DNA of 64,000 nucleotides from Tubiluchus corallicola (taxonomy: Eukaryota; Animalia; Priapulida): positions 186,001-250,000 of the forward strand of contig JAQGDQ010000332.1 of assembly GCA_030141605.1 (NCBI GenBank). Reading direction: 5' to 3'. The notes below the pieces were generated by a model, which was given only the letters and a program-made list of their open reading frames with translations, was not told where the DNA came from and did not search any database. The position numbers and the translations under genes were made by a program. Below are positions 55,401-59,991 of the stretch, piece after piece. Every line of letters begins with the position of its first letter. Position 1 is the stretch's first letter.

Positions 55401-58306
55401 GCCTGCTGCTACAATTACGCACTAGAGCGCATGTCAAGAACCAAGGAAGCAGTTGCGAGGCACGACCTGCAACCCAAAAAGCGGCACAAATTTCGCTAAT
55501 TGTAAGTTATCGAGTGTCATAATAGTTGTACGTTTAATCAGCTTAAAATGACACTATTGCTAATTAACAGTCTAGCTATATTTAATATGGCTGACATAGC
55601 CTAGTTTTGCTGGCTTATCATTTAACGTAATATACATTGTAAGTATTCAATTGCTTGTCAGTTGTGTATGTACTTCGATGGTAATAAATAATGTGTCTAT
55701 CAAGCCATCTATATCTATTGACTTCTGAACAACAGCAAAGACATTAGACATACCTTGGTTAATGACGAATACGTACAAATTCCAGTTTTTAGTTTAAATT
55801 TTTTAAATTCTTAAATTTTAGTTTATTTATGTGTAAATGATTTTTTGTTTAGTTCTTATTTTAGTATAAGTCTATAAGAAATAAAACGAGTAAAAAAGAA
55901 GCAACAATTCTTGCTTTAAAGCAGGTTTAACACTACAGAGTATTACGTTTATGTGATTTCGACTTAAACTTTATAATATTATGTCCTTTCTATGTTGCAA
56001 TCCTGATAATTTTTACACTGATTATTTCTTCCTTCCACTTTGGCTCAATATTACTTTGCCCAGAATTCGACTTTTTTATCCCTTAAAAATGGAAAAACAT
56101 CTTACGTATTTCTTATAGATAATGCAAATAATCAAATCACGAACATCTCTGCAATAATCTGCCTTCAATATAACACACAAACGTCACTAAAAGGCGTAAA
56201 AATCGTTCTATTCACAGCACTCTATTTTTAGGATCGGTTTTGGAGAAAAAATCGCAGACCGATAGACCATCGTTGTGTTGGTGTCGACCTAAACAGGAAT
56301 TTCGATGTTAAGAAACATTGGGGAAGTTAGTATGACAACTTTTTATTTTCGAAACCCCATATATACAAGGTCGTCCAGAAAAAAACGTGACTAGCAACCC
56401 TTCATCCTGATAGTGGAGTATGTAAAGGAACCCTCATCATCGTTTAATCGCATTTCCTCCTTTCCAAAGAGTTATATAAATGCCATATATATATATATAC
56501 ATATATATATATATATATATATTTCTGATGTACTGTTTCTTTGTAGTTGTGTGTTTTTGTACCCATGGTTTAGACTTTCAGTAATGAGAACGAAACGACG
56601 AGGAAGTCAAAATCTTAGAAAGGGGTGTTTTGGCAACTAATTTATTTACGTAAAATTTACGTAAAACAACTCTTCTAAACAGTAGCTGCTATGGTGGTAC
56701 TGCTTAGTAACATCTTCTATATTATAAAGTTGTCACGTGGTTATAACCTTTAGAAAAATCCTTGTCAAGACAGCCGCTAAGACCAATAGCTTGATACAGC
56801 GAAGATCAACCATAAACAAACAAATAAAAGTATGTATCGATTCATCGGGAGAATTATCGTGCAAGTCATAGTTCTTTATTTAATACATTTGAGTTGTAAC
56901 ATACTTATATAAATGTGGGTGTAGTATAGTGTACAATAAACAAAATGTGTTTGTAGCCACTGGAGTTAGTTTTAACCCTTGCTCGCCTATCTATCCCGGG
57001 AAAGAGCCTCTGAGTGAGCCAGAAACAAAGAACATTGACGCCTACCTCACAATGTTGGAAGACAGTGGAAAAACAGTTACTATATTCTTGTCACTGCACT
57101 CGTACGGTCAGCTAATCTTGGTGCCCTATGGCTATGCTTATGAAGACAAACCAAGCAACTACAACATACTAGTAACCTTCAGATTTTTCATTAAATCTAG
57201 CTGTATTTTCATACAAGATTTATCTAATTAAAATCACGCATAACGATTCGCCAAGCGTTTGACATCATTCGAATTTTAGAAGTTGTAAAATAAAGTTTTA
57301 TAATGAACACACAAATAAATCCCGAACATAAACGCTAGCTTTATATAACGACACGTTTTTATCACTACCAGATAAACAAACAGTTTGTGATTAAAAACTG
57401 AATGCACATCATTTGTCTATATTTTGAATAAATTTTATTTTTGTTTTTGCAGTTTGACACGGGTAAGATCGTCAGCACAGCAATAAAAGCCGCGCATAGA
57501 AAATCCTATAAAGTCATAAAGAGTTCAGATTTGTGTAAGTTGAAATAACTTGATACGATTTATAACAGTCCTTGGTTGTGTATATAATTTATCTCTTCTT
57601 GATGGAAACAACTCTAATAGTAATGTCTTCATAGCATTAATGACGTAAATCTCTCTAAAAGGTTCCTTTGGCTAATACGTTAAGCGATGCTAATGCGCCA
57701 ATGTCTAATCTGCTTCTTAGCAGAGGTAAATTATCTCAATTATCAAACACTATGTATAAATAAACTTGAAAATTTCAATCAACAAGGATTTGTGAACAAA
57801 ACATCTGGTACATATCAGCCTTCAATGTCAAATTCAAAGTCAAATATAAGAAGTGACTCTTCTCTGCTAGCATTACCGTTTGTCAAATTTATCTGACTAC
57901 AGAATTACCGAAAATGTACTTTGAAATCACCAATTGAACTTTACATTTTGATGCTTTTGCTTTTTTTTGCATGAACGCAGGATCTATATGCAGCTCACAT
58001 GATACCTCCTCCACCTGCCTGTAAAATTATATTTTTATAACCTTAATACATGGCGATTTTTCTACACCTAATGCTAAGCAGACGCTAATCAGTTTCAAAT
58101 AAGGGTTATCGTATATTCTAGATCCAGCTGCAGGAGGATCAGATGACTATGCTATATTGTCACGAAACATTGAATACGCTTATACATGGGAACTCCGACC
58201 AAATTCTCACTCATCAGCAGGATTTGAGCTGAAATCAAAGAAAATTAAAGCAACTGGTAGAGAAGTGGCAGCCGGGCTAAAAGCGTTGATTGATGCTGTT
58301 TTCTAA
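46442..58306 (+). CDS. Secreted zinc procarboxypeptidase, family M14A, carboxypeptidase B-like (Asp255), 406 aa, isoform A; exons 46442-46512, 49067-49148, 50957-51072, 51864-51939, 52606-52707, 52991-53092, 55178-55273, 56232-56325, 56957-57171, 57453-57534, 58122-58306
   Basis: Eleven phase-consistent GT-AG exons total 1221 nt. Signal peptide MNLYILFFLVSVVTA; prodomain RYDGYK...VSP..NYEIVDNNVQ; HAREWISPA (H69, E72); NPDGY; DRFWRKNR (R127); GVDLNRNF (N144, R145); SEPET; LHSYGQ (H196); YPAAGGSDDY (Y248, D255); TWELRP (E270). AATAAA at 58458 and 58480. Confidence 0.95.
46791..46872. repeat. Degenerate ~15-bp repeats (GGTAAAAATGGCACA), foldback/Mutator-like terminal array
   Basis: GGTAAAAATGGCACA GGTAAAAGTAGCACA CTAAAAGTGGCACA GGAAAAATGCACA; no inverted partner found. 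Confidence 0.45.
47940..48160 (+). mobile_element. CR1/L2-type LINE ORF2 endonuclease (APE/EEP) remnant, frameshifted
   Basis: Across three frames: LSIAHVNIQSL..SKL / WLHSETTDDSIQTEDLIIIRRDR / GLLVQVKENI. These match the APE motifs H.NI.SL, (ET)WL...., RRDR and GG.L.YVK. The remnant probably extends upstream to ~47600. Confidence 0.7.
50200..50446 (+). mobile_element. CR1/L2-type LINE reverse transcriptase remnant
   Basis: ..RDHRQQVKVKNIFSDW / IIRGIP*GTVLGPLLFWI matches R.Q.V....S.W....GVPQG.VLGPLLF, with stops and frameshifts. Confidence 0.8.
52408..52476. repeat. Degenerate telomere-like (CCCTAA)n tract in carboxypeptidase intron 4
   Basis: CCCTAACCCTAACTCAAACCCTGATCTTAACCGTAACCCTAACCCAACCCTAACTCTAATCTTAATCC. 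Confidence 0.8.
53921..55052. mobile_element. Foldback/MITE-like element with inverted arrays of ~15-bp repeats, enclosing (GAT)n/(AAT)n microsatellites
   Basis: The left arm has TCGCCAGTGATACATTTT repeats (53932, 54040). The right arm has the inverse AAATGTATCACTGGCGA / GTACCACTGGCGAA repeats (54940-55045). The ends AGTTGACGTCTCGCCAGTG and CACTGGCGAAATGTACAACT are imperfect inverses. Confidence 0.65.
54521..54764. repeat. (GAT)n followed by long (AAT)n microsatellite
   Basis: Directly visible; source of the poly-Y/I/L ORFs. Confidence 0.98.
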
Positions 58307-58773
58307 ATACGCAAAATTTGTTACTTGAAGACGATACAATGCATAACGACATTTATTCGGAGCTTGAGACATAATACACACTTTGTCATAATTCGGTTAA
58401 TGTGCAAACTATAAATTTTAGTAAATGTAGTTCTCATTAGTGCGTTTAGTTAAAGGAAATAAAATCTATAAGTGATCGAAATAAATGTGAACTAAATGTT
58501 TGGTATCGTTTATAAAAACCCTATACTTATCTTCAATAACAAAAGGAGCTGTGTGAAGTAGAGCGAGCAGATCTTTTTTTAATTTACCTTGGATTGAAAA
58601 GACAACAAATAGAAACTAAAAGCCTAATATACTGCATGATGCATATTATACCCAGACTTAGATAATAAAACATGTGAAACAAGTAAACCTGCTGCAAATT
58701 TAAATGTTTTACATTTTGCTTAACATGAACTTCAAAAAATTGACTCGCAGTGTCGTTTTAAAAAATATAATAC

Positions 58774-59111
58774 ACTAGCTGGGTCCACCCGCATTGCAGG
58801 CGTTGTTTTGAACCCCATTTTGGCAGCCATATTAGATGTCGTTATTCGAATAGAGTGGGGACTTCGATATTCAAACTGAAAGCATCCTAATACCACTAAA
58901 ATACATACTGTCCAATTTATCCAAATAATAGTGCCACTACAAGTTCTACTATTGGTCGCCTTGTAGTGCCATTGATTGACACTAAATTTTCCGGGGTCTT
59001 GTCAATTTTTATTGTTCATCACACTTGGGCGTACAAATTGGCGTGTGGGCGTGCATAAGTAACACACAGCAGGCACACAGACAGATTTTCATTTTTACAT
59101 AATTATATAGA
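58774..59111 (-). mobile_element. Non-autonomous Helitron-like element (~340 bp)
   Basis: The minus strand begins TCTATATAATTATG and carries a (CTGT)-type repeat near the 5' end. It ends with hairpin CCTGCAATGCGGG ~10 nt before CTAG|T, the standard TC...hairpin-CTRR Helitron layout. The 5' target A is not preserved. Confidence 0.65.
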
Positions 59112-59806
59112 ATCACTTTGTCTTAGACATAACTCTCCACTAAAGGGATCCGTTTATCTGTGACAGTTTGTCAGAGACGGTACCTTTGGATGCCAAATTG
59201 ACGAAGAAACTATTTTGTTCTACATATTCCTCATGAAGCGAGCATGTGCTGCCCATTTGCAGACATTTAAATGGGCCTATTATTCGACTACGAAAACTAA
59301 AATTAATTGCTAATGTTCCAACACTAGTCAAAAATTCACAACCATATACACATTAACACTAACAGTTGTTATGCGATGGTAACTATAGATTGAAATTTTG
59401 CTTAGGTTATTTTAATTACTTACTTTATCGCTTGCAACATTATTTTAGCTCGCTTCATAGACGAATTTTTGGTTACTTAGTGCTTTTATTAATTAGTATT
59501 AATCATTAATTAAACTTTGTGAACTGGAACGTTCTCACTGACAGAATTCTTAATGATTCAGGTTCTCGTTGATAGAATTACTTGGTTAAGCAAACCTAGT
59601 GCTTTGTAGATCACATATCATTATAGTAGTATATTTTTCTTAAGTTTAACTTCTGTTTTTCTTTCTCTTTGCATATTGCACCTCCAGATAGCTGTACAGC
59701 TTCAGCTTGTGTATGTGTCGGACCTTTCTCATCCACGATTGTTTCATCTGGTTGTAAAATGTAGAAATATTAATTCCATCTTTAAAAAGTTGTCGTTGTA
59801 TTACAG

Positions 59807-59991
59807 ACCCTGCAGCTGGAAGATCAGATGACTATGCCAAATTAACCCGAAACATTGAATACGCTTACACGTGGGAACTGCGCCCATCTTCGTATTATGA
59901 AGGAGGGTTTACATTAAGTACAAAGTATATTCAACCAACTGGTAGAGAAGTGGCAGCTGGGTTAGAAGCTTTGGTTGATGAAGTATTTTGA
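59807..59991 (+). CDS. Duplicated alternative terminal coding exon of the carboxypeptidase (isoform B)
   Basis: Acceptor TTACAG|; same phase (1) and same length (185 nt) as exon 58122-58306; open to TGA at 59989-59991. Encodes YPAAGRSDDYAKLTRNIEYAYTWELRPSSYYEGGFTLSTKYIQPTGREVAAGLEALVDEVF (44/61 identical to exon A). ATTAAA at 60103. No copies of upstream exons were seen between the two. Confidence 0.85.

Follow-up and report, generated by a model that had tools for sequence, protein, structure and literature searches.

Can a single carboxypeptidase gene make two different enzymes by choosing between two last exons? The question is raised by a locus in the priapulid Tubiluchus corallicola, on contig JAQGDQ010000332.1 of assembly GCA_030141605.1. 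The stretch analysed, hereafter the window, comprises 64,000 nucleotides (nt), positions 186,001 to 250,000 of the forward strand, and coordinates below are counted from its first letter. The window contains a gene for a metallocarboxypeptidase of the M14A family (gene 1) whose last coding exon, which encodes the catalytic Glu270, occurs twice on the + strand, as exon A (58122-58306) and exon B (59807-59991). It appears, with a probability of roughly 0.6, that B arose by tandem duplication of this exon and is used as an alternative last exon of gene 1.

Exon B is a real, old, and intact duplicate of the catalytic last exon. As the initial annotation had described, each copy is 185 nt long, follows an AG acceptor, begins in phase 1, and is open to a stop codon at the same position (TAA in A and TGA in B). 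The copies align without a gap and are identical at 138 of 185 nt (75%) and at 43 of 60 residues, or 44 of 61 when the Tyr248 codon made at the splice junction is included. The differences are distributed 14/9/23 over the three codon positions. The reported identity of 44/61, the excess of third-position changes, and the lack of indels are thus borne out. The flanks are likewise without obvious similarity, since the match extends only from ~17 nt before the acceptor to the stop codon. A and B have Tyr248, Ala250, Asp255, Asp256, Thr268, and Glu270 in common. The only difference among the residues lining the S1' pocket is at position 253, where the GGA codon (Gly) of A is replaced in B by AGA (Arg; 59821-59823), a one-base change. 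Altogether, the two protein forms differ at 17 of their last 60 residues and retain 72% identity. Eleven of the 17 differences lie at exon positions 27-43, which correspond to the loop after Glu270 (clustering p = 2e-4). This clustering was not adopted as a sign of adaptation; the closest full-length relative, P0003, differs from A in this loop too.

How do the two copies fit into the gene? Gene 1 was rebuilt against P0003, a protein of 407 residues that is encoded on a 1348-nt contig and is therefore intron-free. The rebuilt gene consists of ten GT-AG exons spanning 46442-57534 on the + strand, followed by A or B. Exons 1-10 joined to A and exons 1-10 joined to B each encode 406 residues without an internal stop and with a phase-1 junction, and the shared part is identical to P0003 at 254 of 345 residues. 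Exon 1 (46442-46512) begins with ATG, encodes a predicted signal peptide, and ends in a phase-2 donor (17/24 residues identical to P0003). The prodomain is encoded by exon 2 (49067-49148, bounded by AG and GT; 19/27) and exon 3 (50957-51072; 26/39). These are followed by exon 4 (51864-51939; 18/25), exon 5 (52606-52707; 26/34), exon 6 (52991-53092; 28/34), exon 7 (55178-55273; 26/32), exon 8 (56232-56325; 22/31), and exon 9 (56957-57171; 56/72). Exon 10 (57453-57534; 16/27) is the last shared exon; it ends in a phase-1 donor and thereby contributes the first base of the Tyr248 codon. Exon A is identical to P0003 at 49 of 61 residues. As a side observation, exon 10 is the least conserved of the exons of gene 1 relative to P0003; at a position counted as 243 it has a Lys found in only one of 104 homologues (P0003), in a gapped and uncertain part of the alignment. 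The introns of gene 1 contain a degenerate telomere-like CCCTAA array of 10 copies (52408-52467) and an AAT microsatellite of 70 copies (54573-54783).

The assignment to M14A follows the list of defining residues in section 8 of PMC9925722, numbered by alignment to bovine carboxypeptidase A (CPA). The zinc ligands His69 and Glu72 are present in a HARE motif in exon 6, and His196 is present in an LHSY motif in exon 9. Arg127, Asn144, and Arg145 are found in the RKNR and NRN motifs of exon 8, and Tyr248 and the catalytic Glu270 are present in both forms. Exon 1 is hydrophobic, and exons 1-4 are 67-72% identical to P0003, on which the PF02244 prodomain was scored. By these features the gene is predicted to encode an M14A procarboxypeptidase with a signal peptide and an activation prodomain. 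Over the catalytic domain the enzyme is at most 43% identical to homologues other than P0003, and in a FastTree phylogeny of 105 sequences its nearest named proteins are gastropod enzymes, on a long branch, a placement that by itself points to a probable invertebrate host of a sparsely sampled lineage. Asp255, the determinant of the carboxypeptidase B (CPB) type, is encoded by both A and B. Ser207, which is also named for CPB (PMC12927552), is replaced by Gly in the shared exon 9, as in 92 of 104 homologues. By the residue-255 rule for specificity, as given in the portions of PMC9925722 and PMC6937156 drawn on here, both forms would be CPB-like, and form A, with Gly253 and Asp255, is predicted to remove C-terminal Lys and Arg.

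Sequence divergence indicates that B has been maintained as coding sequence. Nei-Gojobori estimates between A and B gave a synonymous divergence (dS) of 0.76 and a nonsynonymous divergence (dN) of 0.19, that is, a dN/dS of 0.25 (Fisher p = 1e-4; codon bootstrap 0.10-0.54). In simulations of a copy that had been neutral since the split, over half of the divergence, fewer than 0.1% of runs remained gap-free and stop-free with an intact AG, at three assumed indel rates. Even with indels ignored, the frame of such a copy stayed open with all 10 key residues retained in 1.25% of runs. Furthermore, a family profile built without the three sequences concerned scored B at 53.9 bits, A at 53.4 bits, and the tail of P0003 at 53.9 bits. 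Judging from these results, B was protein-coding and under purifying selection for most of its history, at least until recently. The intact frame and the low dN/dS therefore exclude a long-dead copy and are still compatible with an exon recently orphaned from a paralog. The initial annotation had proposed dN/dS as a check on alternative use. The ratio is indeed not near 1, but it does not separate an alternative exon from an orphaned one, because the last exon of a paralog that had recently lost its 5' part would look alike.

The splice signals are compatible with use of both copies. At the sequence level each copy has a usable 3' splice site, and a branch-point-like motif lies at -37 of both acceptors. 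Scored against the other nine acceptors of gene 1, the acceptor of B reached 2.0 and that of A -2.1 (leave-one-out range of the nine, -0.4 to 8.3), and among 168 nearby AGs they ranked 6 and 29, respectively; with only nine sites in the training set, this scoring is rough. To the same rough degree, a weak proximal acceptor at A would fit what skipping to B needs. The 3'-end signals are less telling. There are indeed poly(A)-type hexamers after both copies, as had been noted, but they are weak as evidence. Two AATAAA hexamers after A, at 58458 and 58480 (58458-58485, + strand), are candidate poly(A) signals of a kind frequent by chance, and B is followed only by a weak variant candidate, ATTAAA, at 60103-60108 (+ strand). 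AATAAA or ATTAAA occurs in 448 of 1276 200-nt segments of the AT-rich window. A search for an RNA structure signal around A found none (fold z = +1.98), with only short inverted repeats present.

In the preferred model, gene 1 would make two zymogens of 406 residues each, with a common prodomain and zinc site and with 17 of the last 60 residues different. In the first case, the donor of exon 10 would be joined to A, 587 nt downstream, and the transcript would be cleaved after A. In the second case, the same donor would skip A together with its poly(A) site and be joined to B, 2.3 kb downstream.

Several observations weigh against this model. The joining of exon 10 to B is itself predicted from genomic sequence alone. 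P0003 ends in an A-type segment (80% identical to A and 68% to B). A phmmer search with B against 1.84 billion representative sequences returned 121 matches, of which P0003 was the best at 68%, and no B-type protein was among them; this negative is weak, as one close relative (P0003) is represented in the database. Likewise, a search with B among proteins of 33-105 residues gave no candidate, and a search with A among longer proteins gave one match among 84 candidates. A metagenome scan yielded six distant loci, four of which matched the family profile, each once. Of ten phmmer matches looked up, nine matched over several stretches and were checked for strung-together exon arrays: six were repeat proteins without an M14 match, and P0124, P0129, and P0175 contain duplicated or two-domain M14 segments. 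Among the latter, the predicted proteins P0124 (from a chytrid fungus) and P0129 (a record labelled as sturgeon) each have two M14 C-terminal segments and look like duplicated or merged gene models. Within the window, a weak profile match at 30661-30990 was rejected for want of an M14 motif.

The residue at position 253 of B is a further point of this kind. Of the 104 aligned homologues, 100 have Gly, Ala, or Ser at this position, and Arg does not occur there in any. Among further motifs, Arg or Lys was found in 0 of 124 and 0 of 112 (236 in total); this count covers all fetched proteins, including a few spurious matches, with two proteins common to both searches counted once. A small residue at 253, read from this census as a mark of the CPB type, is thus present in A and absent from B. 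Arg253, a single base away from Gly, may thus reflect the beginning of decay, an allelic variant, or an erroneous base. In addition, the first AATAAA downstream of B lies at 62629, with none within 2.6 kb, and the decay simulations leave room for a recent loss of function, up to ~0.02 substitutions per site ago, a point at which 35-62% of simulated copies were still intact. Was B, then, a working alternative last exon for a long time that recently lost its function, with Gly253Arg as the first inactivating change and form B now dead or nearly so? The residue at 253, of a kind (Arg or Lys) absent from the homologues examined, and the missing canonical poly(A) signal favor this explanation, as does a three-way comparison of A, B, and P0003, in which nine residues are unique to B and two to A. 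On the other hand, the profile score of B equals that of A, some of the residues unique to B represent the ancestral state, and the acceptor and frame of B are intact. Recent decay is accordingly rated as quite improbable.

Could B instead be a product of the assembly, coming from a paralog or haplotype with its remaining exons collapsed or wrongly joined? The window comes from a single assembly, and independent reads were consulted. Run X1 covers introns and lacks the allele of the window at the listed sites, and therefore represents DNA of another individual or of a close species. Contigs of X1 cover 58057-58711, over A, and 59430-59752, just upstream of B. None of the listed X1 contigs spans the distance from A to B, a further point against the model that would also fit an artefact, as would the lack of coverage at 59098-59404. 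Because exon 9 likewise has stretches without coverage, such holes prove nothing. In favor of the model, X1 covers A and the bin that contains B about equally deeply. X1 is no deeper over the shared exons (9-19) than over A or B, which speaks against collapse, as does the divergence of A from B, which is too high (dS 0.76) for haplotypes or collapsed copies. Moreover, the window is free of N. An assembly artefact is therefore very improbable. No X1 variant lies inside A or B among the 40 of 204 substitutions and 12 of 28 indels listed. In exon 10, X1 shows five differences, three of them nonsynonymous. A second run, X2, which is RNA by guess, covers only high-copy repeat within the window.

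A different origin of B is suggested by what lies downstream of it. At 63277-63347 (+ strand) there is a second copy of exon 1, with a tblastn match to P0003 (E = 0.002; 13/24 residues). Like exon 1 of gene 1, it has an ATG, a hydrophobic stretch, a length of 71 nt, a phase-2 GTAAGT donor, and an RYDG end, and the two copies are identical at 10 of 23 residues. The pattern of RYDG followed by GT occurs only twice in the window, at these two exons. The statement of the initial annotation that no other exon is repeated thus does not hold. This exon is probably where a tandem carboxypeptidase paralog, gene 2, begins (at 63277), and the other exons of gene 2 would fall beyond the window. The locus is thus probably a tandem carboxypeptidase array. 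Inverted repeats resembling miniature inverted-repeat transposable elements are present at 60332-60440 (45 nt, 80%) and at 63534-63998 (arms of 122 and 63 nt, 85-86%), the latter in the presumed intron 1 of gene 2. A very high-copy repeat, probably a mobile element, occupies ~60680-61230 between B and gene 2, and its summed contig depth in X1 exceeds 30,000.

Given the second exon 1, B may have arisen in either of two ways, by duplication of an exon or as the last part of a further gene in the array. As gene 2 would start 3285 nt (3.3 kb) past B, B may stem from gene duplication, and this too counts against its use by gene 1. In other words, B could be the orphan last exon of an array member: it could be all that remains of a middle paralog after a recent deletion of exons 1-10, or it could be a recent partial copy of the 3' end of a paralog. 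The low dN/dS would then date from the time of B in that paralog, and B may now be unused or spliced only accidentally. Unequal crossing-over commonly produces tandem arrays of M14A genes, as described in part of PMC9925722. At synonymous sites, A and B (pS 0.48) and the two exon-1 copies (pS 0.69) have diverged to degrees that are not significantly different (Fisher p = 0.16). Exon B also retains a Lys at exon position 11 that is the family consensus and is lost in A and P0003. A last-exon tree, built from the first 37 homologues of 50 or more residues, leans in the same direction, placing B outside A and P0003, though without resolution (76/81; approximately unbiased test p = 0.50). However, B could have stayed intact only if the event was recent, and the breakpoint of the event would have had to lie in the 1.5 kb that separate A from B, a narrow interval compared with a gene of ~12 kb. 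This interval showed no exon-10 remnant and no similarity to the last intron, and neither it nor the stretch from B to gene 2 yielded any trace of exons 2-10 or of the last intron. A single short match to exon 1 after B barely exceeded chance, with a score of 30 against at most 29 in 60 shuffles. Finally, X1 depth in the bin holding B (29.8) is in the range of adjacent unique DNA (17-28) and is not doubled, although depth is not reliable as a copy number here. An orphan exon is thus unlikely, though the most probable of the rivals to the alternative last exon.

If B is used as an alternative last exon, what would distinguish the two enzymes? The initial annotation had described a swapped specificity and catalytic module. 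The named residues are indeed encoded by this exon, but six of the seven are the same in both copies, including the main determinant Asp255, and only residue 253 differs. In carboxypeptidase T, the residue equivalent to 253 is Asp260 (offset 7, from Tyr255 and Glu277), which lies at the bottom of the specificity pocket, according to a portion of PMC6937156. Form B would keep Asp255 and Glu270, while its Arg253, at the base of the S1' pocket, is predicted to extend into S1', where it would likely form a pair with Asp255 and keep out Lys and Arg substrates. Form B may then be less active, or nearly inactive, or may act on small or acidic C-termini; its loop after Glu270 is different as well. It is doubtful, yet conceivable, that last-exon choice switches the substrate class outright, with A removing C-terminal Lys or Arg, with B, its S1' filled by Arg253, cutting acidic or small residues or acting as a regulated pseudo-enzyme, and with the rim of the active site remodelled. 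If true, this switch would place M14A specificity under the control of splicing and would not involve residue 255. Caution is needed in predicting the preference of B from one residue, because transplants of pocket residues in carboxypeptidase T did not shift its specificity (PMC6937156, in part).

Gene 1 probably belongs to the class of genes with tandem-duplicated alternative last exons, a known mechanism and a common arrangement. The two exons are homologous, lie in tandem on the same strand and in the same phase, and each has its own stop. Drosophila carboxypeptidase D (svr) reportedly uses alternative first exons. No carboxypeptidase with duplicated alternative last exons was found in the literature searched, which leaves most subscription journals outside and among supplements includes that of PMC8373072 only. 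The initial remark that no such case is known thus stands for carboxypeptidases in this literature, and the mechanism itself is known from other enzymes and proteases.

The comparisons that follow rest on portions of the cited papers. In a human catalogue, 77 of 236 events derived from tandem exon duplication are C-terminal and give homologous C-termini via alternative poly(A) use (PMC8373072). These share with gene 1 the duplicated 3' coding exons but are annotated transcripts, whereas splicing is predicted here, and the supplement of that paper contains no CPA, CPB, CPO, or CPM rows. The same catalogue includes MASP1/MASP3 (C-terminal event 135 of the PMC8373072 supplement), a secreted protease gene with a shared N-terminus and alternative homologous catalytic exons. 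In that gene, a 294-residue exon swaps the whole serine-protease domain, whereas 60 residues inside one M14 domain would be exchanged here. The Anopheles gambiae GMC-beta4 gene (PMC1891103), a clustered invertebrate oxidoreductase gene, likewise combines a shared cofactor-binding exon with duplicated C-terminal substrate-binding exons. It differs in having four such exons, in belonging to another enzyme family, and in having two isoforms supported by expressed sequence tags, whereas the present case is known from the genome only. In Manduca sexta serpin-1 and its relatives (PMC5691223), duplicated last coding exons alter the C-terminal segment that determines specificity. Serpin-1 is an inhibitor with up to 14-16 such exons and described inhibitory differences, as opposed to two exons with an unchanged Asp255 here. 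Drosophila GSTO2 (PMC4195677) is another invertebrate analogue with duplicated alternative 3' exons.

Within M14A, gene 1 resembles CPB and the tandem CPO paralogs (PMC9925722) in having all catalytic residues, with Asp255 as in CPB, and in its probable tandem location. They diversified by whole-gene duplication and change of residue 255 (PMC9925722), whereas the enzyme in the window has Gly207 and its form B has Arg253. A charged equivalent of residue 253 is also present in carboxypeptidase T of Thermoactinomyces (PMC6937156), which is bacterial and has an acidic residue there. If B is spliced, duplicated alternative last exons would extend to M14A carboxypeptidases, a group in which PMC9925722 reports diversification through duplication of whole genes. 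Gene 1 would then provide a natural comparison of two forms with identical zinc site and prodomain, in which the roles of residue 253 and of the loop after Glu270 could be tested. If B is a relic, it serves as a warning that a low dN/dS between exon copies is no proof of alternative splicing inside a tandem array.

Three other features were observed in the window. A 303-residue open frame at 27308-28219 (- strand) matches the amiloride-sensitive sodium channel family (PF00858, E = 9.7e-29). A hydrophobic 262-residue open frame at 40573-41361 (- strand) is probably a membrane protein; its only Pfam match, to holin-X (PF07332, E = 4.7e-7), is possibly driven by composition. A fragment at 5923-6312 (+ strand) matches the 7tm_3 domain of class C G-protein-coupled receptors (E = 3.7e-6), below the curated cut-off.

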